Origin: an uncultured Methanomassiliicoccales archaeon
Lineage (GTDB): Archaea; Thermoplasmatota; Thermoplasmata; RBG-16-68-12; EA-27
NCBI GenBank assembly: GCA_964396265.1
Contig: CAYNEM010000006.1
Span: 60,789 to 124,788, forward strand
Direction of reading: 5' to 3'
DNA length: 64,000 nt
Shown here: in pieces, positions 6,609 to 50,337 of the stretch
Position numbering within the stretch: position 1 is the first letter of the stretch
Layout: each line of letters starts with the position of its first letter
Notes under the pieces: generated by a model
Seen by the model: only the letters and a program-made list of their open reading frames with translations
Told to the model about the DNA's origin: nothing
The model's database searches: none
Position numbers and translations under genes: made by a program

Positions 6609-6687
6609 TTGCGACGGTCGCGGGACCCTCTTGGTTTGGGGGACGCAAACGAACCGCGAACGACGGTAGGATTACCGCGTCTCTGCC

Positions 6688-7959
6688 CTAGCCGCCCCCC
6701 GCCGAACCCAGACCGAACACATGAGGGGAGCCGGAGGATTGGGACGACGGACCTCCCGTGAGGTGCGCGACCTTGAGAGTATTGTTTGTTTCGTCGACGT
6801 AGGCGATCAGGCCAAACCCGTCCGAACCGATTGTGATCGAGGGGTACGTCCCGACGTTGGCCGCATCGTCGACGGTCACGATGACCGCCTCGGCACAGGC
6901 GGGGTTCGAGCAGTACGCGACCTTGAGGGCCGTGATTGCGCTGTCGCGGAGCGCGATCAGGCCGAGACCGTCAGGACCCACCGTCATGGAGGAATACTCC
7001 CCGAGGCTTCCGTCGAGGGTCGTCAGCTCTGCCTCGGTACAAGCGACATCCAAGCAATGGGCGACCCTGATGCCGGCGTCCGGCATGTCCATGTAGCTAA
7101 TCAGGCCGAACCCGTCCTTGCCAACCGCGATCGAGGTCCAGTGTCCCGTGTAACCCCCGCCATCGACGATGGTCACAGTAGCTCCGGAGCAAGCGGTATC
7201 CCGACAATGAGCCACCTTGAGATGACCGTCGGAGTCACCGAAGTAGCTGATGAGGCCGAGCCCGTCCGAACCGATAGCGATCGAAATGTATCCGCCAACG
7301 TAGCCCGCATTCTCAATCGTCGTCACGCTCGCTCGAGCGCAGGCGACGTCCAGGCAGTGGGCGACCAAGAGTTTCATGTTGTTGGCGTCCATGTAGCTGA
7401 TCAAGCCGAGGCCATCCGAGCCGATCGCGATGGAGCTGTAGGACCCGCCCATGACGTCGATCCTCGCGATGGTGGCCCGGCTGCACCGCGCATCCAGACA
7501 GTGGGCGACCTTGAGGGCGTCGTTCGTCGCGTCCAGATAGCTGATCAATCCTAGGCCGTCCGTCCCGATCGCGAGGGACGTATACCACCCTACAGCGTCA
7601 TCGCCATCGAGCGTCGCCAGCTCGGCCTCAGTGCACGCAATGTCCAGACAATGCGCAACCTTCAGGTCCGCGTTCGTTTCGTCGAAGTAGCTGATGAGGC
7701 CAAGCCCGTCCGACCCGATCTCAATTGAGGGAAATCGCCCGAGAGCGCCCTCGATGTGAACCGCGGTGATCCCGGAATTCGGGATGGCGATTCCGCCCTG
7801 CGAATCGTGCGAATCTTCCCTCGGAGCTGGCGCTGCGAGCACCGCGAGAGAAGCGAGGAGCACACCCAGCGCGAAAAAGCTGGCTCCCATGGTCATCGCT
7901 CGGCCAACCGAGGTCCGGAAGAGCGAGGCGGGAAGCACCGCCTTCCCGTGAGAGGCCAT
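6688..7959 (-). CDS. secreted repeat protein with seven tandem ~49-aa beta-propeller-like repeats (conserved IAIGSDGLGLISY..LKVAHCLDxAC)
   Basis: Signal-peptide-like N-terminus (MASHGKAVLPASLFRTSVGRAMTMGASFFALGVLLASLAVLAAPA; alternative starts at 7896/7890). Then 6.5 to 7 highly similar repeats, each with His-Cys-x-Asp-x-x-Cys. No named family recognised. Confidence 0.75.
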   Translation of the reverse strand: MASHGKAVLPASLFRTSVGRAMTMGASFFALGVLLASLAVLAAPAPREDSHDSQGGIAIPNSGITAVHIEGALGRFPSIEIGSDGLGLISYFDETNADLKVAHCLDIACTEAELATLDGDDAVGWYTSLAIGTDGLGLISYLDATNDALKVAHCLDARCSRATIARIDVMGGSYSSIAIGSDGLGLISYMDANNMKLLVAHCLDVACARASVTTIENAGYVGGYISIAIGSDGLGLISYFGDSDGHLKVAHCRDTACSGATVTIVDGGGYTGHWTSIAVGKDGFGLISYMDMPDAGIRVAHCLDVACTEAELTTLDGSLGEYSSMTVGPDGLGLIALRDSAITALKVAYCSNPACAEAVIVTVDDAANVGTYPSITIGSDGFGLIAYVDETNNTLKVAHLTGGPSSQSSGSPHVFGLGSAGGG

Positions 7960-8165
7960 GACGCGCGCAGGGGATTGTCTCCATAAAAGGGTTCCTGGCC
8001 CTCTCCGAATCTCCCGGGTTGTCTGTAGGACCTCCTCTCGTCGAGCCCCACCATCCCTGCCGTCGGTGAGTGAGAACTGGAACTGAGGAAAGCGCATTCC
8101 TCCCACAACGCACGCGGCGCGCGGCGCCGAAGGTTTAAGGCCCATTTCCCTCTCCCATTGACGAG

Positions 8166-9542
8166 ATGCCCGGAACCGCGGTCGTCGGCCTCCAATTCGG
8201 CGACGAGGGCAAGGGGAAGATCGTCGACGTCCTCGCTGGGGAGTCCGACCTCGTGGTGCGCTTCAACGGAGGAGCGAACGCCGGGCACACGGTCCAGGTC
8301 GGGAACGAGCAGTTCGCGTTCCGTCTCCTCCCGAGCGGCATCATCCGGCCGAAGGTCCTGAACGTGATCGGCAACGGCGTCGCCGTGGATCCCGGCCAGC
8401 TCCTCGAGGAGATCGACGGCCTGCGCAAGCGCGGGTACGCCGTCGACAACCTCCGGGTGAGCGACCGAGCGCACCTCGTGCTGCCGTGGCACAAGACGCT
8501 CGACGAGCTCGAGGAGAAGGCGAAGGGCAGCATGGCGGCGGGCACGACACGACGTGGCATCGGCCCCGTGTTCGAGGACAAGGTCGGGCGGTGGGGCATC
8601 CGCGTCACGGACGCGCTCGACGAGATCGTCCTCCGGAAGAAGCTCGACTCTATCTATCCCGTGAAACTCAAGATGTCCAACGCGCTCGGCGGCACGGACA
8701 CGTTCTCCCTCGACGCCGTGTTCAGCCGGTACCGCGGGTACGGGGCAAGGCTGCGCGAGTTCGTCACCGACACGAGCGTCGTTGTCCACGAGGCGATCCG
8801 GAGCGGCAAGTCCGTCCTGTTCGAGGGCGCGCAGGGCACGCTCCTCTGCGTTGATCACGGGATCTATCCCTACGGGACCGCGAGCGCCTGCGTCGCAGGC
8901 GCGGCGACGGTCGGCGCGGGTGTGGGGCCGACGGCGATCTCCGCCGTGCTCGGGGTCGTGAAAGCGTTCACGAGCCGCGTCGGAGAGGGCCCGTTCCCCA
9001 CAGAGGTCCAGGACCCCGTCGCGTCACACCTCCGGGAGCGCGGCGGCGGGGAATACGGGACGGTCACGCGGCGACCACGCCGGGTCGGGTGGATCGACCT
9101 CGTCATGCTTCGGATGAGCGCGCGGGTGAACGGGCTCACGGGCTTCGCGGTGACGAAGATGGATGTCCTGGCGGGGCTGGACGCCGTGCGGGCGGCGATC
9201 GCCTATGGCCACGACGACAAGGAGCTGCGGGACTTCCCCGCCAACCTGCGCATCCTCGGAGAGTGCAAACCGGTGTACAAGGACCTCGAGGGTTGGGGGG
9301 ACCTTCCTCCGGAGGAGTGGCGACGGATCGCTGCCAAGGGATTCGACGCGCTCCCGAAGGCCGCACGGGCGTATCTCCGATGGCTCGAGACGGAGCTGGG
9401 CGCCCCTCTCGCGTTCGTGTCCGTCGGCCGGGGACGGGAGGACACGATCGACTTGCGGAAGGCCGCCAAACCAACCGCCCCCCAGCGACCGAGGACGACG
9501 ACGCTCCCTCGGAAGACGAAACGTCGGAAGCCACGCCGCTAG
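8166..9542 (+). CDS. purA: adenylosuccinate synthetase
   Basis: MPGTAVVGLQFGDEGKGKIVD..NAGHTV.. P-loop and overall AdSS layout. Has a basic K/R/P-rich C-terminal tail. Confidence 0.92.
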   Translation: MPGTAVVGLQFGDEGKGKIVDVLAGESDLVVRFNGGANAGHTVQVGNEQFAFRLLPSGIIRPKVLNVIGNGVAVDPGQLLEEIDGLRKRGYAVDNLRVSDRAHLVLPWHKTLDELEEKAKGSMAAGTTRRGIGPVFEDKVGRWGIRVTDALDEIVLRKKLDSIYPVKLKMSNALGGTDTFSLDAVFSRYRGYGARLREFVTDTSVVVHEAIRSGKSVLFEGAQGTLLCVDHGIYPYGTASACVAGAATVGAGVGPTAISAVLGVVKAFTSRVGEGPFPTEVQDPVASHLRERGGGEYGTVTRRPRRVGWIDLVMLRMSARVNGLTGFAVTKMDVLAGLDAVRAAIAYGHDDKELRDFPANLRILGECKPVYKDLEGWGDLPPEEWRRIAAKGFDALPKAARAYLRWLETELGAPLAFVSVGRGREDTIDLRKAAKPTAPQRPRTTTLPRKTKRRKPRR

Positions 9543-14909: not shown

Positions 14910-15658
14910 AATCGCAGGGGCGAAGAGCTGCGCGATTCATCCCCTTTTCGGCGAGTCGATCGCACGACTCCTCCAAGTCGGTGACAAGACCCCGGCGGGA
15001 CGTAAGGTTCTCGGAACCTACAAATGGGCGCACCAATATCCATTTCGCCCATAGAGCGCATGGCGACCAACGTGAAGGGGTTGGCGGGGTTTGTCGCGTG
15101 CATCATCACCGTGCTGGTGCTACCTACGGCCGCGCCGATGTCGTCGGGCGGGGTCCTTTTCGAGACCCGCGAAACCGAGCCGATTCTCCGAGTGGGCACG
15201 ATTGACGAGATGAAAACGAGAAACCCGATTAACGCGAGTGCCCGGGACATGTGGACCTCAGACGCGACGTCGACGATCGTCCGAGGCACGTCGAGGCGGT
15301 GTGCCCGCCCCGCGACGTTCGTCGGCACGACGGCGCGCACGAGGCCTGGGGGGAACCCCGCGCCCTTGAATGCCCACCACGGGTCGAAGTGGAGGAGTCC
15401 CTCGAATCGCTTCAGATCCATGGGAGGCGCCGCGATCATCTCGCCGGCGGTGCAGTTGATACGAATCTCGCGGCCTGCGTACGTCACGTCCCGGTCCCAG
15501 ATCGTCGGGGGCCTCCCGAGGACGTCGAGCGCGATGAAAGGGACGCGCCAGTGGACGTTGAAGAACGGGAGCACGTACTTCGCGTACCATCGCGTGTCTT
15601 TCAGCGCGACGTGCACGCCGGCGAGCTGGCGCTGCGTGACGACCTCGTCCGGTCTCAC
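14741..15658 (-). CDS. hypothetical protein (translationally coupled to rfcL; 3' part overlaps taw1)
   Basis: Its GTG start overlaps the rfcL stop as GTGA. The first ~215 aa look protein-like (W/F/Y-rich with one hydrophobic helix). The last ~90 aa are S/R/A low complexity and overlap taw1 by 168 nt, so a frameshift or a shorter real product is possible. Confidence 0.45.
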   Translation of the reverse strand: MRPDEVVTQRQLAGVHVALKDTRWYAKYVLPFFNVHWRVPFIALDVLGRPPTIWDRDVTYAGREIRINCTAGEMIAAPPMDLKRFEGLLHFDPWWAFKGAGFPPGLVRAVVPTNVAGRAHRLDVPRTIVDVASEVHMSRALALIGFLVFISSIVPTRRIGSVSRVSKRTPPDDIGAAVGSTSTVMMHATNPANPFTLVAMRSMGEMDIGAPICRFREPYVPPGSCHRLGGVVRSTRRKGDESRSSSPLRLWSTRSSARSLSARATRSSASTAASRCAIGRRASSRRASAATRKRFTESTPTAASR

Positions 15659-16998
15659 GTCCCCTCGCCTTCGAAGGTGCTCAGGCCGCCGCGCGCCTTC
15701 GGCGCCTCCCCGCGCATCGCCGCCAGCTCGCGCACCTCCTTCGAATCCTCGTCTGCGTCGAGCAAGAACGCGAGCTCCTTTTCATCGAGGAAGAGCGCCG
15801 CCGCCATCGCGCGCCGGAACTCCGCGTCCGCCCGGAACACCTCTTTGAAGGACGGGAGGACGTCGAGGGCCGTGCGCCGCCAGGACGCGTGGGTGCTCCC
15901 GCCGATCTTCCGACACACGGACTGCGTGGTCTGGCGGCGCGATCGGGTACGCGCCATCTTCGACAGCCACAGCGGGAACCGGTACGGCCCGCCGCCAGCA
16001 CGGCCGTGCCGCGCCACCGCCACCCCCGCGGTCATCATGTCGGACGCGTACGCCCAGAAGCGGTACGCCTGCACACGCCGCACCCGCCCCAGCCACACGT
16101 CCGCGCGAGAGAGCGCCTCGTACCCTCGCGCGAGGTCGTCGGGGTCGCGATACTCGTAGGGGAGGTTCTCGTCGATCCACAGGATGAGGTCCTCCGGGTC
16201 CTTGTCCAGGTTGTCCGTCGCGCGACGCGCGCGTCTCGCGTCCCCGGATTGGAAGATCTCGCGGAGTGCGTCGAACACGTTGCCCTCGACGTCGCGGTCA
16301 CCCAGCTTCACGACGTCTGCGGCGGGGACCACCTTCTTGCCCTCCGCGAGCGCCTGCAGGTCGTTCATCGCGCTCCGGAGGTCCCCGGCCGCATGGGCAG
16401 CAATCGCGTCGAGCGCCTCCTCGGAGAGGGACACCTCCTCCGTGTCTGCGGCGCGCTTCAGCGCCTGCTTCACGGCCTGCAGCGTGAGCCGGTTGAACTT
16501 GATCTGCCTTGTGAGGGACTTGATCGATCCGGACCGGCGGGACAGCTCGTAGTAGTCATTGCAGATGAGGACAATCGGCTGGCGGGTCTGGCGGATCGCG
16601 TCGACGATCGCGCCGATGCCGCCGAAGTCCTCGCGGCCGAACAGGTTGTCCGCCTCGTCGAGGATGATGACCGTGCGCTTCCCCTCGGAGGTCCGCAGGA
16701 ACTCCCCGGTCGCCGAGAACGTCTGCGTGATCGCCCCCTGGAGCGCGATCTTGCGTACGGCCTCCGCGTTCCGCTTGTCCGAGGCGTTCATCTCGACGAC
16801 GCCCCACCCCATGTCCGCCGCCAAGGCAAGCGCAGAGGACGTCTTCCCGACCCCCGGGGGCCCACTGAGGACGACCGCCCGCTTCTCCGGCGGCTTCTTG
16901 CGCCACGACTCCGCCCATCGCTTCAGATCCTGGATGGCGGTCGGGTTGCCGCATACGTCCTTCAGGGTCTTCGGGCGGTGCTTCTCGGCCCAGTCCAT
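15655..16998 (-). CDS. rfcL: replication factor C large subunit
   Basis: N-terminus MDWAEKHRPKTLKDVCGNP.. Walker A LSGPPGVGKTS, DEAD-like ILDEAD, and the RfcL C-terminal domain. Confidence 0.92.
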   Translation of the reverse strand: MDWAEKHRPKTLKDVCGNPTAIQDLKRWAESWRKKPPEKRAVVLSGPPGVGKTSSALALAADMGWGVVEMNASDKRNAEAVRKIALQGAITQTFSATGEFLRTSEGKRTVIILDEADNLFGREDFGGIGAIVDAIRQTRQPIVLICNDYYELSRRSGSIKSLTRQIKFNRLTLQAVKQALKRAADTEEVSLSEEALDAIAAHAAGDLRSAMNDLQALAEGKKVVPAADVVKLGDRDVEGNVFDALREIFQSGDARRARRATDNLDKDPEDLILWIDENLPYEYRDPDDLARGYEALSRADVWLGRVRRVQAYRFWAYASDMMTAGVAVARHGRAGGGPYRFPLWLSKMARTRSRRQTTQSVCRKIGGSTHASWRRTALDVLPSFKEVFRADAEFRRAMAAALFLDEKELAFLLDADEDSKEVRELAAMRGEAPKARGGLSTFEGEGT

Positions 16999-17121
16999 GA
17001 GGGTGGGAGCGCGTGAGCGGGTTTAAGGGCTCGGCTCGCACCGCCGAAACTACTCCGAACATACCGGACGGAAGTAAACATTAAGCCTCAGTCGGAGTTC
17101 CCCGCCTCGGGAGGAAGCCCC

Positions 17122-17463
17122 ATGATGTGGATGAACAGCGGCAACATCAAGGAAGGCCGGATGAAGGAATTCCAGGAGTGGACGAAGAAGAACGAGAAGC
17201 TCCTGCAGAAGAACGCCCCGTCGGGATGGACGTATCGCGGCACGTACGCGTACGTCCTCGGCTTCGGCCGGTTCGGCGTGGCGGGAATGTGGGAATGCGA
17301 GAAGTACGGCGACTTCGACAACCTGCGCAACCACGACGACAAGAACTGGATGCGCCTGAACGAGGAGATGTCCGACTTCTTCGATCAGTCCGCGAGCGAA
17401 GGCGTGCTCCTGCGAGAGATCGGTGACACGAAGATCTTGGAACCGAAGAAACCACGACCGTAG
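17122..17463 (+). CDS. hypothetical protein (lower-GC, island-associated)
   Basis: 113-aa ORF, K/E/W-rich, with a GGGAGG Shine-Dalgarno-like motif about 8 nt upstream. Lies in a locally lower-GC stretch next to the recombinase genes. Confidence 0.5.
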   Translation: MMWMNSGNIKEGRMKEFQEWTKKNEKLLQKNAPSGWTYRGTYAYVLGFGRFGVAGMWECEKYGDFDNLRNHDDKNWMRLNEEMSDFFDQSASEGVLLREIGDTKILEPKKPRP

Positions 17464-17787
17464 CCCGGCTCGTTCGTGACAGGACGTGACACATTGAGGC
17501 CAGTTTAGCTCCAGCCTAGACTATTCATCGCTGTCACGTATCCGCTTGACTAGTCAAGCTTCCACCTAGAACGCCGTCGAAACCCGCTTTTCGGGCGGTT
17601 CGACCGGGTGTTCTCGCAACGATCGCGCGATCCCCGCTCCGGACCGCTCTCATGCTCCCGCGGGCACCTCGTCGCCGGAACGCGAGCTCCGCGCACACGA
17701 GTGGCGACCATGAGCATCCGCAGCATGGAAACCCTCACTTCGGTTTGTCAAGACGGGGGAGGTCGAAACGGTCTACCGTTTCGAACG

Positions 17788-18474
17788 CTACTTTCCCCTC
17801 GACGGGGGCTTGAACAGGGCGGCGTCACGCTTCTGGTCTGGCCTCCGGATGCGCTTCTCCATCTCGACCTGCACCTGGGAGAACTTGTCCTGGTCCACGA
17901 TCGGGCGGTGCTTCCCGTTGCGGAGTCCCCCGTCCTGGCGGATGTACCCGCAGTACAGCGGGTTCCTCAGGATGTTCGCGATCGTCTGGCTTTGCCATCG
18001 CTTCCCGGTCTTTGTGCGGATCTCCGCGCGGTTGAGCTCCTCGCAGACTTTTGCGATGCCACGGCCCTCGAGATACATCTCAAAGATCAGGCCGACCGTG
18101 CGCGCCTCGTTCGGGTTCACCTTGAGCGCACCGTCGCGCGTCTCGTACCCGTAAGGCCGCGTGAACTCCTCGAACCCCAGGCCCGAGCCGCCCGAACCGT
18201 GTGACAAGATACCACGTATCATGGTCTTGTAGTCGAGCTTGCGCTCGACGCACAGCTTGCGCACCGCCTCGTCCTCGTCTTTCGCACTGAAGTGCGAGAG
18301 CATCTCCTTCGTCGACCCGAATCGCAGGAAGATCTCCCGGAAGACGACGGGGTCCTTCGGAGCTGCCTCGCGACACGCGCGGCACAGGACGGGGGCCCGC
18401 ATGTCCTCAATCGGGTGTTCCTGAAGGCCGCTCCGGCTCCAGCATCGCTCGCACCGGTCGTTCCCCACGGTCAC
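17788..18474 (-). CDS. serine-recombinase-family protein lacking the catalytic resolvase domain (zinc ribbon + recombinase domain)
   Basis: N-terminal CxxC..CxxC (CERCWS..CRACRE), then the 'recombinase' domain motif RPYGYETRDGALKVNPNEARTVGLIFEMYLEG..IAKVCEELN..GIRTKTGKRWQSQTIANILRNPLYCGYI. No YxRVSTxxQ catalytic motif. Confidence 0.75.
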   Translation of the reverse strand: MTVGNDRCERCWSRSGLQEHPIEDMRAPVLCRACREAAPKDPVVFREIFLRFGSTKEMLSHFSAKDEDEAVRKLCVERKLDYKTMIRGILSHGSGGSGLGFEEFTRPYGYETRDGALKVNPNEARTVGLIFEMYLEGRGIAKVCEELNRAEIRTKTGKRWQSQTIANILRNPLYCGYIRQDGGLRNGKHRPIVDQDKFSQVQVEMEKRIRRPDQKRDAALFKPPSRGK

Positions 18475-19286
18475 GCCTCCGCCGCCAAACGATCAGCCTC
18501 GATCGCGAGCACGACCTTTCTCCCTTGAACAGCGTCCCACAATCGGTGATCGACGATCGGCTGATGGGAATCGTCGCGGACGCTCTCGTCCCATCGGATC
18601 TTCCCGACGTAGACCGGATTGTGCAGCATGTAGCGGATCCCGGACTTGCTCCAGCGGCGGCCCCGCTGCGAAGGGATCCCATCGTCGTTGAGTTTGGCGG
18701 CGATCGCATGGAAGGCGCGCCCCTGGGCGTATTCCTCGAAAATGCCTCGGACGATGCGCGCCTCCGCCTCGTCCACGATGAGCGCACCGTCCACGTATCG
18801 ATACCCGAAGGGGCGGCGGAACCCGTTGAGCCCTTCCCCGGCCTTGTGCTTCTGCGCCATCCCCATGTACACGCGCTCCCCGATCTGCTCGGACTCGAGC
18901 TGCGCGATGCGCTGGATGATGTCCATGACGAAGCGCCCCATGGCGGTGGAGGTGTCGAGGGACTCCGTCGCGCTCACGAAGTCCTTGCCCCACTTCCCCA
19001 GGTCGTCCATCATCCCCATGAAGTTCCGCGAGTTGCGGTGGATCCGGTCCATCTTGATCACGAGCATCTTGTCCCAGGCATCTCGGTCCGCAAGCATCCG
19101 CTGGTACGCGGGACGGTTCACGTTCCTCCCGGTGTGGCCGTCGTCCACGTACTCCTGCGCGACGGTCCAGCCCTGGGCGCGGCAGAATGCATGGAGACGC
19201 TCGCTCTGCGCGTCGAGGGAGAAGCCCTCCTTCGCCTGATCCTCCGTGGATACGCGGGTGTAGAGTGCGACGCGTTGAGCTGCCAT
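18471..19286 (-). CDS. serine recombinase (resolvase/invertase catalytic domain + recombinase domain)
   Basis: Catalytic-Ser motif VALYTRVSTEDQ, then the recombinase-domain motif (RPFGYRYVDGALIVDEAEARIVRGIFEEY..GIPSQRGRRWSKSGIRYMLHNPVYVG). Its stop overlaps the downstream gene start by 4 nt. Confidence 0.88.
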   Translation of the reverse strand: MAAQRVALYTRVSTEDQAKEGFSLDAQSERLHAFCRAQGWTVAQEYVDDGHTGRNVNRPAYQRMLADRDAWDKMLVIKMDRIHRNSRNFMGMMDDLGKWGKDFVSATESLDTSTAMGRFVMDIIQRIAQLESEQIGERVYMGMAQKHKAGEGLNGFRRPFGYRYVDGALIVDEAEARIVRGIFEEYAQGRAFHAIAAKLNDDGIPSQRGRRWSKSGIRYMLHNPVYVGKIRWDESVRDDSHQPIVDHRLWDAVQGRKVVLAIEADRLAAEA

Positions 19287-19352
19287 CTAGGAATCCTTCT
19301 CCTGCGGGAGCGTCGATACGCGCGCGTAGAGTGCGACTCGCTGAGTGCCCAT
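19287..19352 (-). pseudogene. duplicated 5' fragment of the serine recombinase gene (21 codons then a stop)
   Basis: Translates MGTQRVALYARVSTLPQEKDS* against MAAQRVALYTRVSTEDQ.. of the full gene immediately downstream. A ~30-bp direct repeat (GTAGAGTGCGAC.CG.TGAG.TGCCCAT) spans both start codons. Confidence 0.6.
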
Positions 19353-19626
19353 CCCGGGCCCGCATTTGCGCGTCGGCACTTAAAAGTGAGTCCGCAAGAG
19401 CACGCGATGCCCCAGAGTGAGTTCGAACCATGCCCCACATCGTGCTACATCGTGGCGAGTGACGGACCGTGTTTAGATTCAAGCTTGAATCGCCTCGTTC
19501 CAAACGCGAACTGCGAGACTAGTCTTGGATGCACCTAAACCGACCGCATCCGCGGTACAACGTCCCACCCTGGGCAACGATCGGGCCTGCCCGTTCCGCG
19601 GCCCTCGTTCGCTAGGCCCCCGGCTG

Positions 19627-19761
19627 ATGAACGAAAAAGAAAAGCAAGGCCCCGCGCTCGGCGCGTTCTGCAAGCTGGATTGGCGGCTCTTCGACCCGGC
19701 GAACCTCGAGGGGCGGTTCGATGGAGAGCGGTACTTGGAAGCTGTCCCGGGAATGAAGTGA
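19627..19761 (+). CDS. small conserved ORF A (~44 aa), paralog of ORF B
   Basis: MNEKEKQGPALGAFCKLDWRLFDPANLEGRFDGERYLEAVPGMK. It shares LDWRLFDxAxLxxRFxGxRYxE with ORF B at 20632. The two copies differ mostly at synonymous sites. Confidence 0.5.
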   Translation: MNEKEKQGPALGAFCKLDWRLFDPANLEGRFDGERYLEAVPGMK

Positions 19762-19802
19762 CGGACGGTCGCTGAGGTCCGGCTGATTACATTTAATTAC
19801 AT

Positions 19803-19810
19803 TTATATAC
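19803..19810 (+). promoter_or_regulatory. TATA box (TTTATATA) for the UPF0175/PIN operon, preceded by tandem ATTACATTTA repeats
   Basis: AT-rich motif 30 nt upstream of ATG 19833 in an otherwise GC-rich genome. Implies a leaderless transcript. Confidence 0.6.
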
Positions 19811-19832
19811 AAGTGTAACGCTGGCAACCTCC

Positions 19833-20132
19833 ATGAAGGTCATCACCGTCCGGATCCCCGACGAGGATGCCGAGTCCCTGGAGTCCATCGAGCGCGCCGA
19901 GAAGGTGGACCGCGCGGCCGCGGTCCGGAAGCTCCTCTCCGAGGGCATCAACCGGTGGAAGGTGCAGAGGGCCCTGGATCTCCTCCGCCAGCATCGGGTG
20001 ACCCTGCGCACAGCGGCGCGCATGGCGGGCCTCTCCTACGGGGAGATGTTCGATCTGGCGGGCCGGGCGGACATCACGACAGGCTATTCCCTTCAGGACC
20101 TCCGACAGGACCTGGGGGAGCCGGACCGGTGA
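19833..20132 (+). CDS. UPF0175-family antitoxin-like protein
   Basis: 99 aa. C-terminal HTH (VTLRTAARMAGLSYGEMFDLAGRADI) typical of UPF0175. Strong TATA box TTTATATA at 19803-19810, 30 nt upstream of the ATG. Its stop overlaps the start of the PIN gene. Confidence 0.75.
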   Translation: MKVITVRIPDEDAESLESIERAEKVDRAAAVRKLLSEGINRWKVQRALDLLRQHRVTLRTAARMAGLSYGEMFDLAGRADITTGYSLQDLRQDLGEPDR

Positions 20133-20632
20133 TCGTCGATTCCTCCGCCCTCATCCCGCTCAGCCGCATCGGCCGCCTCGACCTGCTTCGCCGGTTGTAC
20201 CGCCCTGTGAGGACGACGCGGGACGTCTACCGCGAGTGCGTCGAGGAGGGGGCAGCCCGGCCCGGAGCCGACGCCCTTCGCGAGGCCTGCGAGCGGTGGC
20301 TTGAGGTCGTGGAGCCCCCCCGCGGCGCCGCGCGACTGGCCGCCGCCGAGGGGATCGAGCTAGCCGACGCCTCGCTCCTGCTCCTGTGCGAGGAGGCGAA
20401 GGACGCCCTGCTCACGAACGACGACCACCTGATGCGCGTGGCCCGGGCGCGCGGGATCCGGGGGCGCTGGCTCACGGGCGCCGTCCTCGCCGCCACACGG
20501 AGGGGACTGTTGACCCCCGCGGAGGCGAAGGAGCTCGTGACCCGGCTCGTCGGCGAGGGACTGTGGCTCTCCCCCCAGGTCTTCGTGGCAGTGCTGGACG
20601 CAATTGAGGCGATGACCGCTTCCCCGCGGTGA
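20129..20632 (+). CDS. PIN-domain toxin (DUF3368-like), partner of the UPF0175 gene
   Basis: GTG start overlapping the antitoxin stop as GTGA. VIVDSSALIPL.. and ..LLTNDDHLMRVA.. acidic residues fit a PIN nuclease of the type usually paired with UPF0175. Confidence 0.7.
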   Translation: MIVDSSALIPLSRIGRLDLLRRLYRPVRTTRDVYRECVEEGAARPGADALREACERWLEVVEPPRGAARLAAAEGIELADASLLLLCEEAKDALLTNDDHLMRVARARGIRGRWLTGAVLAATRRGLLTPAEAKELVTRLVGEGLWLSPQVFVAVLDAIEAMTASPR

Positions 20633-20772
20633 TGGCAGGTGAACGCAGAGAGCTATTGGACTGGCGACTGTTTGATTCCGCGACACTGTCCCGGCGGTTC
20701 AACGGGGACAGGTACGTCGAGCGCCTGAAGGGCCTGAGGCCGTCCCCGGACGAGGTTCGGCGAAAGGCTTAG
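20632..20772 (+). CDS. small conserved ORF B (~46 aa), paralog of ORF A
   Basis: MAGERRELLDWRLFDSATLSRRFNGDRYVERLKGLRPSPDEVRRKA. Its ATG overlaps the PIN gene stop as TGATG. Confidence 0.5.
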   Translation: MAGERRELLDWRLFDSATLSRRFNGDRYVERLKGLRPSPDEVRRKA

Positions 20773-20784
20773 GGCCCAGATGGG

Positions 20785-21138
20785 TCAGCCTTTGAGCCAC
20801 TTGGAGGCCCTCTTTGCGTCCCGCTCGAGTTCCTCGGGCGAATACCGGAAGTAGGGGATGCCCCGCTTGGCGGCCTCGTCGACCATTTCGTAGATACTCA
20901 CGCCAGCGTAGGCGGCAGCCCCGCCAAGGCTGAACTTGCCATGGAGGTACTTCTCCAGCGCGCGTTCCATTCGCAGCCGCCGGAGGCCCTCGTCCACCGC
21001 CCGCCGCGCCACGTCGGATCGGAGGAGGCGGAGGTCCGCGGCCAGCTCATCGATCTCCTCTAGGACATGCTCGTCCTTGCGGATCTGGAGGTTCTTCACA
21101 GGGCGATGTAATGACTTGTCATGTGATAAACTTTCCAT
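20785..21138 (-). CDS. UPF0175-like HTH protein (orphan antitoxin-like)
   Basis: 117 aa from ATG 21138. C-terminal ..KFSLGGAAAYAGVSIYEMVDEAAKRGIPY.. resembles the UPF0175 HTH. The longer 266-aa ORF upstream of it is low-complexity and unlikely to be translated. Confidence 0.5.
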   Translation of the reverse strand: MESLSHDKSLHRPVKNLQIRKDEHVLEEIDELAADLRLLRSDVARRAVDEGLRRLRMERALEKYLHGKFSLGGAAAYAGVSIYEMVDEAAKRGIPYFRYSPEELERDAKRASKWLKG

Positions 21139-21287
21139 CAGACGAGCCTCAGTGGAGGTTCCACCCTCCGCCGCGGGAAAGGAAGGAAGGGGAACAGGAC
21201 CCCCGGCGGAGGAACGTGCGCCAGGTCCAAGGCATGGGATTCTGCCATCGATGTATTTAAATGGCATTATGGCATAGTCTACCGCCG

Positions 21288-21554
21288 ATGGCGGAGCTCG
21301 TTTCGGTGGACCGCGCAGGGCGCGTCGTGCTGCCCAAGAAGATCCGAGACGCCTTGGGTATCGACGAGCGGACGAAGCTCCTCGTCGCGGTCGGTGAGCA
21401 CGGTCGACTGGTGCTCCAGAAAGTGGATGTGGAGGCCATCGCGGGTCGGCTGGAGAAGGAACTCGCCGGGAAGGACGTGGATGCGATTGTCCGGAAAGTC
21501 CGGAGGGAGATGAAGGCCCTTGCCCGCCGCCGGTATCCGGACCTTCTTGCTTGA
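21288..21554 (+). CDS. vapB: AbrB/SpoVT-type antitoxin (VapB-like)
   Basis: MAELVSVDRAGRVVLPKKIRDALGI.. swapped-hairpin AbrB motif. TATA-like TATTTAAAT at 21254-21262. Confidence 0.8.
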   Translation: MAELVSVDRAGRVVLPKKIRDALGIDERTKLLVAVGEHGRLVLQKVDVEAIAGRLEKELAGKDVDAIVRKVRREMKALARRRYPDLLA

Positions 21555-21951
21555 CACGAACGTCTTCGTGGCAGCGGTGAAGCACCCGGCGAGGGAGACC
21601 GCCACGCTCCGTCTCCTCCTCGAGGTCCTTCGGCGCGACGACGTCGCTCTCGTCGGGAACGACCTGTGGCTCGAAGAGATGCTCCGGTATGCCGAGGCCT
21701 TCCGTTCCGAGACCGCCTCCCAGCTCGTCGCCGCCTTAGTCGAGAAGACGCGGTTCGTTCGCGTCGACGCAAGCTTTCGGGCCGTCTGCCGACGGTTCAT
21801 GACCACTCCCGACCCCGCGGATGTCCTCCACGCCGCGACCTGCCTGCAGGAACGGGCGGTCCTCGTCACGAACGATCGGCACTTCGACCGGATCCGGAAG
21901 GAGGGCATCGTCGAGGTCTGGGACATCGCGAAAGCCATTCACTCCCTCTGA
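21520..21951 (+). CDS. vapC: PIN-domain toxin VapC
   Basis: FLLDTNVFVAA.. and ..VTNDRHF.. match conserved PIN acidic residues. Overlaps the 3' end of vapB, so its exact start is uncertain. Confidence 0.8.
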   Translation: MPAAGIRTFLLDTNVFVAAVKHPARETATLRLLLEVLRRDDVALVGNDLWLEEMLRYAEAFRSETASQLVAALVEKTRFVRVDASFRAVCRRFMTTPDPADVLHAATCLQERAVLVTNDRHFDRIRKEGIVEVWDIAKAIHSL

Positions 21952-22178
21952 GTCCCGCCGTTAGGTCGATGGACGAGTGCGAGCCGTAGCTGGACTAGCC
22001 GACGTTCTGCAAGGTGGAGTGGCAGCTCTTGACCCCGTCGACCTGACGCCCGTCCCGAAAGCTGGCATCGGATCCCCGATGGGGCGAGGCGACTTCTCCG
22101 CGACATGTCGCGCGCATCCCTTTCGACAGAGAAACCCAACCAGGCTCGGCGGCGACGAGCCGCCAGAAGGACCCAACC

Positions 22179-22637
22179 ATGCGAACGAACGAAGAAGGTG
22201 TGTCTCCGGTGATTGCGACCATCCTGATGGTGGCGATCACCGTGGTGTTGGCGGCGGTGCTGTACGTGATGGTGACGAACCTGATCGACGACCCCGGCGG
22301 ACGGCGACCCATCGTCACCCTGGACTCGATGGGATGCGATGCGGTTGAGTGCCGGGGGCGCGTGACGGCTGCCTCGTCGCCCTCGGTCGATCTGGGCCGG
22401 TTCCGCGTGACCGTCCTCGCCGACGGGAACGCCCTGATCCTCCCGACGGAACTTGTGGCCGGCGTGGACATCAGCGGAGGGGGCCTCACGCTCCGATACA
22501 CGGATCTTGGTGCCGAGGGGAAGGTGACGGGCGGCGACACGTTCCGCATCACGGGGATCTCGGCGGGGGTGGAGTACGAGGTCGTTCTCTTGTGGAACGA
22601 CGGAACGGGAATCCAGTCCGTGACGTTCAGCACCTAG
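22179..22637 (+). CDS. archaeal type IV pilin-like protein (class III signal peptide, DUF1628-type N-terminus)
   Basis: MRTNEEGVSPVIATILMVAITVVLAAVLYVMV is a typical prepilin-peptidase (PibD/FlaK) substrate N-terminus (..G/VSPVIA..). Confidence 0.8.
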   Translation: MRTNEEGVSPVIATILMVAITVVLAAVLYVMVTNLIDDPGGRRPIVTLDSMGCDAVECRGRVTAASSPSVDLGRFRVTVLADGNALILPTELVAGVDISGGGLTLRYTDLGAEGKVTGGDTFRITGISAGVEYEVVLLWNDGTGIQSVTFST

Positions 22638-22664
22638 GCGGGAGCCCCCCGCCTCCTCTTTTTT

Positions 22665-24953
22665 TCAATTCCCCCGATCCACCAACAGCCGCTGGACCTC
22701 GTCGCGGTCCCTGCGCGCCCCGAGCCCTTCGAAGATCGCGAGCGCTCGCCGCAGGTGCTCGAGGCCACGGGCATCCGTGCGGAGGCGCCCGAGGTTGCGG
22801 TGCACCTCCCCCATCTGCCAGAGGAAGCCGAGCTTCTCGGACAGCACGAGGCTCCGCTCGTAGAACCTGGCGGCGTTCGCCGCATCCCCCTTCCGCCGGT
22901 ACGCCTCCCCGATGTTGTTGTACAGGATCGCGACCGTGCGGTGGTCGCCCAGCTCCTCGCTCAGCCGGAGCGCGTCCGCGTAGTCCGCGAGCGCGCCGTC
23001 GACGTCGTCCCGCTGCCACCGCAGGATTCCGAGGTTGTTGAGCGCGCCCGCGACCCCGGCCGCATCGCCGACGGCCTCGTACGCCTCCCGGCTGCGGCGG
23101 TACAGGTCCGCGGCGGCGTCGAGGTTCCCCGCCTGCCATTCGAGGATGCCCAATGCGTTGAGGATGCGCGCCACGATCGACTGGTCGGCGTCGCCGACGA
23201 TCCCCAGTGCGCGCTCGAACGAGGCGCGCGCGACATCGAAGTCCCCTTGGCGGTATTCGATCACGCCGAGCTCGAGGACGCCGCGCGCCTCGCCTCGCCG
23301 GTCGCCAAGATCCTCCGCGAGGGAGCGCGCCTCGTCGAAGCTCTCCCGGGCGCCGGGCCATTCGCCGCGGACGGACTGGAGCTCGCCTCGCAGGAGGAGC
23401 AGGGGGACGCGGCCCGCGGGCTCCAGCGCCCGCAGGTCGAACGAGGCGAGGAGCTTCATCACGTCGTTCTGGAGGCCTTTGGCGGCGAGGGAGCGGCCGA
23501 TTCCGCCGAGGAGCGCGGCCGCGTCCTTCGTGCGTCCCGCCTGGATGAGGTGGTACAGCATCTCGACGCGCGCCTCGGGGTCCGCGAGGGCCTCGTAGTG
23601 CGACGCCGCGAGCGCGTGCAACCGGAGGCGCTGGGGCGTGGTCAGGCGTGAATAGAAGAACTCCCGGAGGAGGTCGTGCATGTCCGCAGTGCCGCCGCCA
23701 ATCCGGACGAGGGACCGCTCCGCAAGCGCCTCGAGGCGACCGACGTCGCTGACCTCTGGCGCGACGGCCTCGAGGGCGACGGGATGGCGGTGCACCGCCA
23801 GCGAGGCGACGATATCCTGTTCTCGTGCATCAAGCTTCGAGGCGACCTCCTCGCGCAGGTACGCGCGCACGTCCGTCATTCCCTGACCGCCCGAGGCCGC
23901 GACGAGCTCGAGGAACAGGGGATGGCCCTTCGTCGCCACCACGAGTTCCGCGCGCCGGTCTGCGGGTACGCCCCGATCTTGCAGGAGCCGGAGGGCGCTC
24001 GCCTCATCGAGGCCGCCAAACTCGAGCTCGACCACGAGGCCCTCGAGGCTGACCTCCCGCCGCGAGTAGAACACGGGGATCCGACGCCCGGCGATCACGA
24101 GCTTCGCGCGCGTCCCCCCGAGCACGCGAACGAGCTGGGTCAGCAGGCCGGCCAACCCCTCCGGAGCCTTGTGGACATCGTCCAGGAAGGCAATCATGGG
24201 GAGGTCGCGGACCTCCGCGGCGATCCGGGTCAGCATCTCCTCGACGGGGACCGTCCGCTGCACGTCGATTGTGCGCCCGACCTCCCGCAGTTTGGCGGCG
24301 ATCCCCGCGAGGACCTGCTCCGTGGTCGTCCACTCCGTCACGCGGAACCATACGGTGACGGCGGAATCGGCGCCCTCCGCGAGCCGCGCGAGGAAGGCGG
24401 TCTTGCCGACGCCTGGCAGTCCCCGGACCGTTAAGCACACGGCCGGTGACTTGAGGAACTCGCGCGCTGCCGCCAATTCCCGGGACCGCCCGTAGAAGCG
24501 CCTGGGGGTCGCGGTCGTCGGGGGCGCACGCGCGCGGGAGGCGTCAAGATCGAGTACACCGTCCGTCGCCGCCAATGCGAGGTCGAGGAGCGTCGTTCCC
24601 ATGGGGGCGAGCGGCAGAGATTGCGAGAGTTCGGCGATCTGTTCCGTGCCGCCGGAACGCACGCGCACACGCGTGGCGGCGATCCGCGTCCGCAAGGCCT
24701 CCGCCGCCTGGGCCCCCGCGGGGGTCAGCACGTACACCTTGCGCCGCCGGCCGCCCGCCTCCACGTGGGCCATCCGTTTCGTGACGTGCCCGCGCGTCTC
24801 CATCTCGCCGAGGACGGCGGAGACGTGGCTGCGGCGCACGCTGACCGCGAGGGCGATCCCCTGCTGCGTCATCTCGAACGGGACCTCGAAGCGCTCCCCG
24901 CGGCGCACGTACGCGAGGAGGTGGAGCAGGATGCGCTCCTCCGCGGTCAGCAT
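22665..24953 (-). CDS. STAND-class NTPase with N-terminal winged-helix, central NB-ARC-like AAA ATPase and C-terminal TPR repeats
   Basis: N-terminal MarR/ArsR-like wHTH (LLHLLAYVRRGERFEVP..). Walker A GLPGVGKTAFLARL and Walker B MIAFLDDVH. C-terminal TPR units (ALNNLGILRWQRDDVDGALADYADALRLSEELGD..). Confidence 0.85.
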   Translation of the reverse strand: MLTAEERILLHLLAYVRRGERFEVPFEMTQQGIALAVSVRRSHVSAVLGEMETRGHVTKRMAHVEAGGRRRKVYVLTPAGAQAAEALRTRIAATRVRVRSGGTEQIAELSQSLPLAPMGTTLLDLALAATDGVLDLDASRARAPPTTATPRRFYGRSRELAAAREFLKSPAVCLTVRGLPGVGKTAFLARLAEGADSAVTVWFRVTEWTTTEQVLAGIAAKLREVGRTIDVQRTVPVEEMLTRIAAEVRDLPMIAFLDDVHKAPEGLAGLLTQLVRVLGGTRAKLVIAGRRIPVFYSRREVSLEGLVVELEFGGLDEASALRLLQDRGVPADRRAELVVATKGHPLFLELVAASGGQGMTDVRAYLREEVASKLDAREQDIVASLAVHRHPVALEAVAPEVSDVGRLEALAERSLVRIGGGTADMHDLLREFFYSRLTTPQRLRLHALAASHYEALADPEARVEMLYHLIQAGRTKDAAALLGGIGRSLAAKGLQNDVMKLLASFDLRALEPAGRVPLLLLRGELQSVRGEWPGARESFDEARSLAEDLGDRRGEARGVLELGVIEYRQGDFDVARASFERALGIVGDADQSIVARILNALGILEWQAGNLDAAADLYRRSREAYEAVGDAAGVAGALNNLGILRWQRDDVDGALADYADALRLSEELGDHRTVAILYNNIGEAYRRKGDAANAARFYERSLVLSEKLGFLWQMGEVHRNLGRLRTDARGLEHLRRALAIFEGLGARRDRDEVQRLLVDRGN

Positions 24954-41633: not shown

Positions 41634-42014
41634 TCACCAGCCTTTCGGGGGGCGACCGATCTTCTCCCGAACTCGAACCGCCTCTTGAACGAGCGCGCGC
41701 AACGCGGGACTCCTCGCTTCGTGCATGCGACGGACCTTCACGTGCTTCAGCCGCTTGCCCGTGCCCTCCAGAAGTTTCTTCGGGTCGTCGAGATCGACAC
41801 CGTCGTAGAACCCGAGGTTCACGTGGTCCGCCGCGGGCATGATGTAGACCACCGTGTGATTCTCCTTCGTGTAGGACGGCATCCCGTACTTCATCTGCTC
41901 CGCGAGGTTTGGCGCGATCTTTCTAACCAGCTTGCGAAGCTCCCTGACGAGGGGCTTGAAATCATCTGGCGTGTTCGCGAAAAACGCGTCGAAGTCGTTC
42001 GGCCGCTTCGGCAC
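41634..42014 (-). CDS. DUF1801 (YdhG-like) domain protein
   Basis: 126 aa. ..FKPLVRELRKLVRKIAPNLAEQMKYGMPSY..HVNLGFY.. matches DUF1801. Its start is 1 nt after the hmgA stop. Confidence 0.6.
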   Translation of the reverse strand: MPKRPNDFDAFFANTPDDFKPLVRELRKLVRKIAPNLAEQMKYGMPSYTKENHTVVYIMPAADHVNLGFYDGVDLDDPKKLLEGTGKRLKHVKVRRMHEARSPALRALVQEAVRVREKIGRPPKGW

Positions 42015-42015
42015 G

Positions 42016-43287: not shown

Positions 43288-43318
43288 GGGCCGACCCGCC
43301 GCGCGATGGCCGTGCGGG

Positions 43319-50314: not shown

Positions 50315-50337
50315 GACATCGCGCGATGCTGCCGCCG

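Follow-up and report, generated by a model that had tools for sequence, protein, structure and literature searches.

Our analysis of a 64,000-nucleotide stretch of archaeal DNA (the window) points to two adjacent serine-recombinase-family genes, ORF1 and ORF2, which, in a reading that we hold to be somewhat more probable than its negation, form one conserved operon for a two-subunit serine recombination system that has become a fixed part of the chromosome in a Thermoplasmata clade. Catalysis would fall to ORF1, and ORF2 would bind DNA as an accessory subunit at res-like candidate sites (Table 1). A sequence-only reading had noted two consecutive recombinase-family ORFs on the minus strand, overlapping by 4 nt, and had proposed a frameshift-split large serine recombinase, a degenerate tandem duplication or a non-catalytic partner such as a directionality or accessory factor. 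Both ORFs are found where it had placed them and the overlap is confirmed, as the GTG start of ORF2 (18474) and the TGA stop of ORF1 (18471-18473) share GTGA. Close ORF2 orthologues start two codons further in (MGNDRCERCW), so that the true ORF2 start could be the GTG at 18468, two bases past the ORF1 stop; to judge by this spacing, the two genes are tightly coupled whichever start is used. The order ORF1-ORF2 is held at every locus examined, with intergenic gaps of -4 to +71 nt. An exact-sequence look-up of ORF2 gave no match, and the source annotation probably uses another ORF2 start codon.

Table 1. Features of the two-gene unit and its flanks (window positions; RD, Recombinase domain).
Feature	Position	Strand	Description	Remarks
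Site D	17474..17575	.	second copy, same orientation as site U	downstream of ORF2
ORF2	17788-18474	minus	228 aa, non-catalytic partner	Recombinase PF07508 match
ORF2 RD	~17848-18162	minus		
ORF2 disordered linker	residues 93-104			
ORF2 N-domain	~18199-18465	minus	four zinc cysteines and five helices	
ORF2 degenerate HNH finger	18373-18453	minus	four zinc cysteines	
ORF1	18471-19286	minus	271 aa, short serine recombinase	Pfam Resolvase and Recombinase matches
ORF1 RD	~18513-18821	minus		
ORF1 catalytic domain	~18834-19271	minus	Ser13 codon 19248-19250	
Remnant ORF	19287..19352	minus	21 codons, MGTQRVALYARVSTLPQEKDS*	diverged duplicate of ORF1 5' end
TATA-like box TTTTAAG	19379..19385	minus	~30 nt upstream of ancestral ATG at 19352	kept in relatives
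Site U	19440..19545	.	~105 bp, conserved, quasi-palindromic	upstream of putative ORF1 promoter

The catalytic YTRVSTEDQ domain and the RD that had been ascribed to the upstream gene are borne out by Pfam. Residues 6-151 of ORF1 match Resolvase (E 3e-35, 121.7 bits) and residues 174-256 match Recombinase PF07508 (E 4e-23), the RD following helix alphaE. S13, which lies within YTRVSTEDQ, is kept in the orthologues together with R11, D80, R81, R84 and the alphaE helix, and the nearest solved catalytic domain is that of TP901-1 integrase (E 1.5e-29). Only positions 87-352 of the 651 in the phrog_95 integrase profile are aligned with ORF1. The protein stops 13 aa past the RD; no zinc-ribbon match was found in it, and it has neither a zinc-ribbon nor a coiled-coil domain.

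For the downstream gene, the earlier description of a CxxC..CxxC motif, a second RD and no catalytic domain stands: residues 121-208 of ORF2 match PF07508 (E 2e-23), Pfam gives no Resolvase match, and the zinc motif reads C8xxC11 ... C31xxC34. The interpretation of this motif as a zinc ribbon does not stand. It is located on the N-terminal side of the RD, whereas the zinc ribbon of large serine recombinases follows the RD, and the sequence of the motif marks it as a degenerate HNH nuclease finger and not a recombinase zinc-ribbon domain. In distant Thermoplasmatales orthologues of ORF2, a sequence-specific DNA-binding domain is joined to an HNH finger that is still intact, and a beta-beta-alpha-metal finger with His...Asn...His is present in orthologues P0058-P0084, P0251 and P0258. 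In the ORF2 of the window the catalytic His/Asn/His is lost and the four zinc cysteines are retained; in the alignment HH is replaced by EH/PF and similar residues, the Asn is gone and CxxCH has become CRxCR. Pfam HNH does not match this protein even at E<=10, nor does any HNH PHROG, compared with 17 that are matched by orthologue P0070 of CP070798.1, in which the finger is intact. The RD of ORF2 is a genuine DNA-binding domain of the type found in large serine recombinases. Its 43% identity to the RD of ORF1 over 99 aa (E 6e-25) identifies the two as paralogues and, since its nearest matches beyond its own family are ORF1-type proteins, it arose by duplication of the partner's RD.

The region upstream of ORF1 contains a remnant ORF, which begins at an ancestral leaderless ATG (19352) and whose stop abuts the ATG of ORF1 (TAGATG). 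The remnant and the start of ORF1 form a 60-nt direct repeat with 75% identity and 66-nt spacing. Three related loci (L039, L041, L042) have one copy only, beginning at the ancestral ATG, and similar remnants that end past the RVST codons occur in others (L035, L036-38, L046, L122). The TTTTAAG box, read from the sequence and from a comparison of upstream regions, is a putative promoter element. Because ORF1 in the window now stands behind the 21-codon remnant ORF, its expression may be low.

The gene pair is bracketed by two copies of a conserved site. On the gene strand, site U consists of the blocks GTTTAGGTG-N7-GACTAGTC, GCGATTC..CTAAAC and GCCACG..GTAGCACG, with the core GACTAGTCN7CACCTA at 19517-19537; the core of site D lies at 17548-17568, and a perfect 16-bp palindrome, GCTTGACTAGTCAAGC, is found within site D. 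The two sites are 61% identical in a pairwise alignment and have three conserved blocks in common over ~105 nt. Their core has just two matches in the 64 kb, with 0 expected, and both copies are direct. An nhmmer site profile recovered site U in the window and in L035-L039 and L122, and site D in all loci of the window clade and of an intermediate clade, the independent loci L121 and L122 among them; the relatives in which it recovers both copies include loci that were not part of the profile build. In the window, site D is located between the convergent 3' ends of ORF2 and a 113-aa ORF, and in relatives directly upstream of the gene for the RFC large subunit (RFC-L). In the soil clade, the largest, only the downstream site region is detectable; a downstream-site HMM built for this clade found no upstream copy there, so paired sites are demonstrated in the window and intermediate clades only. 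A further clade, with intact HNH fingers, has flanking palindromes that are analogous but not alignable to the window sites; at locus L115 they lie at 7053-7112 and 8998-9023.

Other identities for these elements were considered and rejected. They do not qualify as RNA genes, as Rfam has no match in 16900-22700 and RNAalifold returned no consensus structure, and hence no conserved RNA fold, for the sites. A replication origin with ORB-like repeats beside a replication gene was discarded upon inspection: there is no Orc1/Cdc6 and no AT-rich unwinding stretch, the interval between the repeats is taken up by the two coding sequences, and no skew change is visible. At the distal end of the 22.7-kb variable region, close to HMG-CoA reductase, no third site copy was found, and an integron-like cassette array bounded by repeats is therefore not supported.

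Pairwise distances of both proteins follow those of the neighbouring RFC-L (r 0.97 for ORF1 and 0.90 for ORF2). The pair adjoins RFC-L in all five relatives that had been chosen blind to its presence, and none of these five RFC-L neighbourhoods contains an empty site; the pair is thus fixed in a Thermoplasmata clade, in which it is inherited vertically as a unit. In the clade with intact HNH fingers, the two-gene unit occupies another fixed address, between rpS8e-SRP19 and TrkA. A viral or plasmid source of the pair was considered and rejected: its GC content resembles that of its surroundings, no tRNA gene is nearby (the sole one is at 58232), a search of viral contigs gave no relatives, and no defence system was matched among the window ORFs. 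ORF1 is split across reading frames in a few relatives (L054, L056, L059, L008), which could be due to assembly errors or decay. TA modules and gene remnants adjoin the pair; a pilin lies on the same side as the TA modules, and the 113-aa ORF and RFC-L lie on the other. Small 'LDWRLFD' ORFs that flank the TA modules were considered as DUF7557 relatives, an assignment which was rejected as these ORFs are what remains of the 3' end of a 406-aa gene.

A single large serine recombinase split into ORF1 and ORF2 by a frameshift, whether through a sequencing error or as a recent pseudogene, is suggested by the adjacency of the two genes, their 4-nt overlap and the match of both to large-serine-recombinase profiles, but is practically ruled out by stand-alone homologues, an absent fusion and the wrong domain order. 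The homologues of ORF2, 39 clusters at first and later more than 90, range from 32 to 93% identity and without exception stand alone, with lengths of ~220-269 aa; the gap to ORF1 varies among loci. A single-ORF version was sought in relatives with ORF2, with the family profile and with the N-terminal domain, and no fused ORF1-ORF2 form was detected in ~15 billion proteins. When the N-terminal 100 aa of ORF2 were run exhaustively with phmmer against 1.84 billion representatives, 27 proteins were retrieved; the domain was N-terminal in all of them and fused to a catalytic domain in none (0/27). In a joined product the order would be catalytic-RD-Zn-helical-RD, an arrangement foreign to large serine recombinases. 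In the homologues, both proteins are independent, full-length, widely conserved and separate. The suggested degenerate tandem duplication holds in part: the RD of ORF2 is a duplicate of that of its partner, but the gene is not degenerate (dN/dS 0.13, and 0.11 for its RD). The same values bear on the idea that the pair is the decaying remnant of an integrated mobile element, a truncated and partly duplicated recombinase with no present function, which we regard as very improbable. The absence from ORF1 of the C-terminal domains that large serine recombinases have, the dead HNH finger of ORF2, the remnant duplicate of the ORF1 5' end, the adjoining TA modules and gene remnants and the frame-broken ORF1 of some relatives all fit such a history. 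However, the dN/dS range of 0.11-0.19, with 0.19 for ORF1, does not exceed that of the essential neighbour RFC-L (0.25) and indicates purifying selection on both genes, which also argues against two halves of a broken one. Moreover, the length and architecture of both proteins are unchanged down to 32-47% identity, the catalytic residues are invariant and the pair is found in every relative sampled.

Two further explanations accept a conserved pair. In one of them, which we consider unlikely but not negligible, ORF2 stands outside the recombination machinery as a sequence-specific DNA-binding regulator that reuses the RD, and ORF1 acts alone or barely. Such a protein could repress the recombinase operon or its neighbours: site U lies just upstream of the putative ORF1 promoter, site D just upstream of RFC-L in relatives, and Tn3-type res sites are known to serve also as operators. 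The stronger constraint on the RD of ORF2 than on that of ORF1 (dN/dS 0.11 vs 0.33) would fit as well. In the window, however, there is no promoter at site D; strict co-occurrence and translational coupling with ORF1 at all loci also count against this explanation, and the ancestral form had a nuclease, which is not a typical regulator module. The other explanation, distinctly unlikely in our judgement, sees, in place of a host function, a persistent selfish mini-element of ~2 kb (site, ORF1, ORF2, site), which would have kept its address through site-specific re-integration and, ancestrally, through homing, with the HNH nuclease cleaving empty sites. The repeats of a recombination-type site, direct and enclosing just two genes, are consistent with such an element, as is the unit with its own flanking palindromes at a different fixed address in the HNH-intact clade. 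The RD-RD identity within a locus is also highest where the HNH finger is intact (52%, vs 43% in the window and 31% in the soil clade, one locus per clade). Against it, neither an empty site nor a second copy was seen, viral contigs gave no match, the divergence follows that of a neighbouring housekeeping gene, and in the window clade the nuclease is dead and the pair still strongly conserved.

We therefore favour the two-subunit recombination system. Of the partner roles suggested earlier for ORF2, the accessory one agrees with the conservation, the operon structure, the shared DNA-binding domain and the flanking sites. In our model, ORF1 dimers would bind and cut a palindromic core such as GACTAGTC inside the ~105-bp multi-block site, and ORF2 would bind neighbouring blocks of the same site via its own RD. 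There it could serve as an architectural or regulatory subunit, like the extra resolvase dimers at the accessory sub-sites of res, and the two direct sites that bracket the gene pair would be the substrates. We infer protein binding to the sites, cooperation of ORF1 and ORF2 and a reaction that might be excision and re-integration of the 2-kb module, resolution or autoregulation. Several observations count against this model. Recombination between two such directly repeated sites would remove the very genes of the recombinase, yet these are fixed in the clade, and no empty site, circle junction or inverted module was seen in the loci examined. Furthermore, the soil clade has a detectable site region on one side only, an unguided ungapped 22-mer comparison of the flanks of ~55 loci did no better than shuffles, and ORF1 is preceded by the remnant ORF in the window and frame-broken in a few relatives.

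A more far-reaching version, which we put forward tentatively and think rather doubtful, is that the Thermoplasmata clade keeps, as a core chromosomal feature, an undescribed two-subunit recombination machine in which a paralogue without catalytic domain, once a protein-guided nuclease, has taken on the role of binding accessory sites, and which carries out a host-relevant reaction at the ~105-bp sites. The ancestral HNH finger would then have been aimed by the RD at the same sites as the partner recombinase, a protein-only analogue of the TnpA/TnpB arrangement. Candidate host reactions would be excision of the module next to RFC-L and its re-insertion there in a regulated manner, resolution of chromosome multimers, or the capture of variable DNA that accumulates beside site U.

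Serine recombinases have been studied almost wholly in bacteria and phages, as single-protein enzymes whose synapsis and direction are controlled in resolvases by accessory copies of the enzyme itself and in integrases by a coiled-coil together with a recombination directionality factor (RDF). The system described here is set apart as archaeal, chromosomally fixed and vertically inherited, with an enzyme that has no coiled-coil and invariably comes with a DNA-binding paralogue on a second polypeptide, from which catalytic domain and nuclease activity have been lost, and with candidate sites of defined sequence on either side of the genes. Compact and directly testable, it could be informative on the division of site-specific recombinases into catalytic and architectural subunits, on the fixation of a selfish nuclease-recombinase pair in a lineage, and on the role of a 'housekeeping' serine recombinase in archaea. 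Moreover, the combination of a short enzyme, a targeting subunit and ~105-bp sites might be of interest to genome engineers.

Among known systems, the large serine recombinases (compared were A118/LI Int, TP901-1, Bxb1, phiC31 and SPbeta SprA) share the catalytic domain and the RD with ORF1. However, they have their own zinc-ribbon with a coiled-coil for synapsis and direction control, which is missing from both ORF1 and ORF2, and here the second RD resides on a separate polypeptide without a catalytic domain. Their attP and attB sites are non-identical, 40-50 bp long and used in a direction set by the RDF, whereas the candidate sites in the window are multi-block direct repeats; no attB-like empty site was found. 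RDFs of serine integrases are small proteins without a common sequence signature that switch direction by binding the coiled-coil of the integrase, for which ORF1 has no counterpart, and no RDF is known to contain an RD. The CcrA/CcrB recombinases of SCC elements are likewise encoded by two adjacent serine-recombinase-family genes that act as a unit, and CcrB is the best model for ORF1 (177, cut-off 900) and CcrA for the RD of ORF2 (49, cut-off 700). As these scores are far below the NCBIfam equivalog cut-offs, this identity was rejected; in addition, both Ccr proteins are full-length and catalytic, unlike ORF2.

HNH endonucleases, among them homing enzymes that pair an HNH with a separate DNA-binding module, resemble the distant ORF2 orthologues with an intact finger, whereas ORF2 of the window differs in that its HNH catalytic residues are gone. 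In a limited literature search, we found no description of a serine-recombinase RD as a targeting module or of the ORF1-ORF2 architecture. IS607-type elements offer a functional analogy only, as they are compact and site-flanked and also combine a serine recombinase gene (tnpA) with a following nuclease gene (tnpB), which in our case would apply to the ancestral state. The TnpA of IS607 carries a MerR-type HTH at its N-terminus and lacks an RD, and ORF1 was rejected as a member since it scored 37.6 against a cut-off of 110 and matched the catalytic motif only. Furthermore, the partner in IS607 is the RNA-guided TnpB, in contrast to the protein-guided HNH-RD, and our unit is single-copy at a fixed locus.

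In the small serine resolvases (gamma-delta/Tn3, Sin, beta), a site of similar length with several imperfect palindromic blocks also lies by the gene; the res site of gamma-delta comprises ~114 bp, and in the window a three-block candidate site is found upstream of ORF1, with its second copy downstream of ORF2. These resolvases are HTH_7 proteins of ~180-200 aa, whereas ORF1 has 271 aa and an RD, and its matches to gamma-delta, Gin and Tn3 are confined to the catalytic domain. Their site is present once per transposon or plasmid copy, whereas here the sites bracket genes on the chromosome. The idea that non-cutting DNA-bound extra subunits organise the synapse may nevertheless be common to both: in the resolvases one protein occupies all sub-sites, and in the system proposed here a dedicated paralogue without catalytic domain would take over the accessory ones.

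ORF1, a short serine recombinase gene, and ORF2, its downstream partner without a catalytic domain, are joined at GTGA, where the GTG start of ORF2 overlaps the TGA stop of ORF1. The sequence-only reading had described both genes accurately (coordinates, domain content, 4-nt overlap and CxxC..CxxC motif); of its account of ORF2, the zinc motif and the 'Recombinase' domain (RD) are both present, and the order is corrected here, since the motif lies before the RD and not after it. Close ORF2 orthologues begin two codons further in, and the true start of ORF2 may be the GTG at 18468; its coupling to ORF1 would remain either way. An ORF1-type gene (250-295 aa, Resolvase + Recombinase) lies immediately upstream of ORF2 in every examined locus, with a gap of -4 to +71 nt. 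The two RDs of the window are 43% identical (99 aa compared).

For the earlier proposal of a large serine recombinase split by a frameshift, a single-ORF version was sought in homologues and none was found. The 39 clusters of ORF2 homologues (46-93% identity) are each 173-246 aa long, and the ORF2 family profile retrieves 182 proteins at E<=0.001, among which the ORF2-family members all stand alone and the remainder are of the ORF1 type. Moreover, when the first 100 aa of ORF2 were searched exhaustively with phmmer against 1.84 billion cluster representatives, the hits were 27 proteins (82-269 aa), each carrying the domain at its N-terminus, and one unrelated repeat protein; in none was the domain fused to the catalytic domain of a serine recombinase. 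The stand-alone homologues and the absence of a fused form from this search rule out a split of one gene. Decay of the pair is rejected on the dN/dS values (Nei-Gojobori medians) of ORF1, 0.19 (catalytic part 0.12, RD 0.33), and ORF2, 0.13 (N-terminal domain 0.18, RD 0.11), for comparison 0.25 in the adjacent gene for the replication factor C large subunit (RFC-L), and on the retention in ORF1 orthologues of R11, S13, D80, R81 and R84 together with a near-invariant alphaE helix. ORF1 homology is broken across frames in four loci (L054, L056, L059 and L008); either errors of assembly or a decay of the catalytic gene confined to these lineages, with ORF2 staying intact, could account for this.

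The catalytic domain of ORF1 is closest to TP901-1 integrase (E 1.5e-29). Since the protein ends 13 residues past the RD and covers only positions 87-352 of a 651-position phage serine-integrase profile, it is of the large-serine-recombinase type without the zinc-ribbon and coiled-coil module, and it belongs with neither the canonical integrases nor the canonical small resolvases.

Alignment with distant ORF2 orthologues from low-GC Thermoplasmatales MAGs identifies the CxxC..CxxC region of ORF2 as the scaffold that binds zinc in an HNH nuclease finger. These orthologues carry C-x2-C...LEFHH...N...C-x2-C-H, exceed the Pfam HNH gathering threshold and match many HNH PHROG families, while ORF2 of the window clade has lost a 9-residue loop and has its catalytic His/Asn/His positions replaced and unconserved, with all four cysteines kept. 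The HNH region of McrA matches the ORF2 family profile weakly (E 0.08), and an AlphaFold2 model of ORF2 (pLDDT 83.5) has three parts. Outside the ORF2 family the nearest relatives of its RD are ORF1-type proteins, and this domain therefore came from duplication of the partner's RD. Within a locus, the two RDs are 43% identical in the window, compared with 52% in a genome whose HNH is intact and 31% in one of the soil clade; these values fit a divergence of both DNA-binding domains after nuclease death, a trend that is only suggestive at one locus per clade. In the HNH-intact clade, stretches of 44-55 nt within the RD-coding DNA of ORF1 and ORF2, always 790 nt apart, match each other at 77-80% of nucleotides, which suggests recent duplication or gene conversion keeping both domains alike.

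The window is archaeal; proteins that are identical, or nearly so, carry the source names 'Thermoplasmata archaeon' or 'Euryarchaeota archaeon RBG_16_68_12'. A metagenome scan revealed at least 209 relatives, with 80 loci retrieved; none was found in viral contigs. Nearly all loci have the order HMG-CoA reductase, ORF1, ORF2, a small DUF7557 ORF, RFC-L and Taw1. Across 44 loci compared in pairs, the protein distances of RFC-L correlate with those of ORF1 (r 0.97) and of ORF2 (r 0.90), which are slightly smaller than the RFC-L values (ratios 0.89 and 0.82). Furthermore, the pair lies beside RFC-L in all five of five RFC-L homologues selected solely on identity (54-74%) and contig size. These results make the pair a fixed part of its clade, inherited vertically. 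In the HNH-intact clade the two-gene unit has another conserved address: rpS8e-SRP19, the pair, variable secreted/pilin genes and TrkA. Some soil-clade genomes have a third gene between ORF2 and DUF7557, a second Res+RD recombinase, giving ORF1-ORF2-ORF1'. The DUF7557 protein is highly conserved (47-56 aa, TTIQLTxxTRDRLYRLKFRKTYDEFLxELCDLYE) with a ribbon-helix-helix look; its gene is absent from the window and was lost in the window clade.

The pair is flanked by candidate sites U, upstream of ORF1, and D, downstream of ORF2. The motif GACTAGTC-N7-CACCTA has exactly two matches in the 64-kb window (19517-19537 and 17548-17568), on the same strand, with none expected by chance; the first core is upstream of ORF1, at a distance of ~230 nt, and the second is downstream of ORF2, ~220 nt away. 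The sites are 61% identical, with three conserved blocks in common. An nhmmer profile built from nine sites detects two same-orientation copies in every window-clade contig spanning both flanks and recovers both copies in L122, a locus outside its training set (E 4e-7 and 8e-6). In the intermediate clade the profile detects the downstream copy, placed after DUF7557 and immediately ahead of RFC-L or a 113-aa ORF. Quasi-palindromes occur on both flanks of the pair in the HNH-intact clade; in the soil clade only the downstream site region was recognisable and its upstream counterpart was undetected. A naive flank-to-flank scan gave no significant similarity. RNAalifold found no conserved RNA structure in the flanking sites and Rfam gave no match; they are therefore sites in DNA and not RNAs. 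In the window, site D and RFC-L have the 113-aa ORF (17122-17463, opposite strand, no family) between them; this ORF and the DUF7557 gene occur together in L121. In L119 a segment with RFC-L and a 72-aa gene (6572-8485) has the reverse orientation with respect to the pair and Taw1; the inversion has one end at the expected place of site D, and the 3' ends of RFC-L and the DUF7557 gene overlap.

Upstream of ORF1 in the window, a 21-codon remnant of the ORF1 5' end has come to lie behind the conserved TATA-like box (19379-19385) and begins at the ancestral leaderless ATG (19352), and translation of ORF1 probably depends on re-initiation. Similar remnants of the first 14-21 codons, ending just past the catalytic RVST codons with a stop ahead of the true start, lie upstream of ORF1 in L035, L036-38, L046 and L122; their junctions differ between lineages, and L039, L041 and L042 are single copy. 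That the breakpoint falls in the best-conserved nucleotide stretch is a hint that the 5' end of the gene has repeatedly been recombined or replaced. An insertion hot spot separates site U from the pilin gene; it measures 2.9 kb in the window, 4.9 kb in L038 and 0.3 kb in both L035 and L039, and contains toxin-antitoxin modules, two to three in the window (19833-21951), as well as recurrent 3' fragments of a 406-aa gene. The distance from ORF1 to HMG-CoA reductase is 22.7 kb in the window, ~0.3 kb in the soil clade and 5.3 kb in L041. This region of the window codes for an archaeal pilin, an AAA16-TPR regulator, an FAD oxidase and large surface proteins with PKD/SBBP/DUF7948/CARDB, one of them carrying wHTH domains at its C-terminus, and is a variable surface-protein island adjoining the pair. 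Very long overlapping ORFs occupy both strands at 43286-57103 (2030 + 2331 aa at 43.3-50.3 kb, 1793 + 1819 aa at 50.5-57.1 kb); each pair presumably holds at least one giant surface protein, the other being a high-GC shadow ORF.

Features of the recombinase pair, its candidate sites and its surroundings (window positions unless a locus or residues are named)
Feature	Position	Strand	Description
ORF1	18471-19286	minus	271 aa; Pfam Resolvase residues 6-151, Recombinase PF07508 residues 174-256
ORF2	17788-18474	minus	228 aa; Pfam Recombinase residues 121-208 alone; C8xxC11...C31xxC34 N-terminal to RD
ORF2 N-domain	residues 4-92		compact; two short strands, five helices (AlphaFold2 model)
ORF2 linker	residues 93-104		disordered, Gly/Ser (AlphaFold2 model)
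ORF2 RD	residues 105-209		(AlphaFold2 model)
RD-coding repeat	L008 5742-5796 vs 6532-6586; L115 7803-7846 vs 8593-8636		
Site U	~19440-19545		~105 bp unit (extended comparison)
Site D	~17474-17575		~105 bp unit (extended comparison)
Site block 1			GT.TAGGTG-N7-GACTAGTC; palindromic cores include GCTTGACTAGTCAAGC
Site block 2			GCGA..AGTC..GGA.CTAAAC
Site block 3			GC.ACG...T..CACG
RFC-L	15655-16998		
ORF1' third gene	L004 6769-7533; also L088, L094		60-72% identical to ORF1-type proteins
DUF7557 gene	L001 6766-6909; equivalents in most relatives		between ORF2 and site D; tandem CATAGTACTATG palindromes ahead of the gene
ORF1 5'-end remnant duplicate	19287-19352	minus	stop abuts true ORF1 ATG (TAGATG)
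Three short paralogous coding remnants	19663-19758, 20656-20769, 22002-22037	plus	..LDWRLFDxAxLxxRFxGxRYxE..; flank toxin-antitoxin modules
Intact 406-aa gene	L038:3292-4512	minus	C-terminus matches remnants; winged-helix-like N-terminus; no Pfam family
RHH/UPF0175 + PIN-like gene	19833-20632		
UPF0175-domain ORF	20785-21585	minus	
AbrB/MazE + PIN	21261-21951		
Variable region	19287-42012		
HMG-CoA reductase	42013-43287	minus	

From this analysis we propose that ORF1 dimers would act at the palindromic core of a site, while ORF2 would bind the neighbouring blocks with its own RD, in an architectural or regulatory role, and its former HNH domain would supply protein contacts. Direct-repeat sites predict excision and re-integration of a ~2-kb module; given the fixation of the module, such a reaction would have to be rare, reversible or blocked. 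Alternatively, the main role of the candidate sites may be autoregulation, or recombination with sites elsewhere.

The res sites of the gamma-delta, Sin and beta resolvases are of like size and of multi-block, imperfectly palindromic build, and sites U and D resemble them in these respects. Unlike canonical large serine recombinases, the pair lacks a coiled-coil zinc-ribbon domain and therefore is not one of them; it is not a small resolvase either, since it has an RD in place of HTH_7. Its scores against the CcrA/B and IS607 TnpA models are far under the cut-offs, and literature searches turned up no account of a serine recombinase that has an RD-only, formerly HNH partner. The architecture of the pair, its fixation in an archaeal lineage and its defined candidate sites are surprising and testable: it would work like a serine resolvase or integrase, yet it falls within neither group as these are defined.
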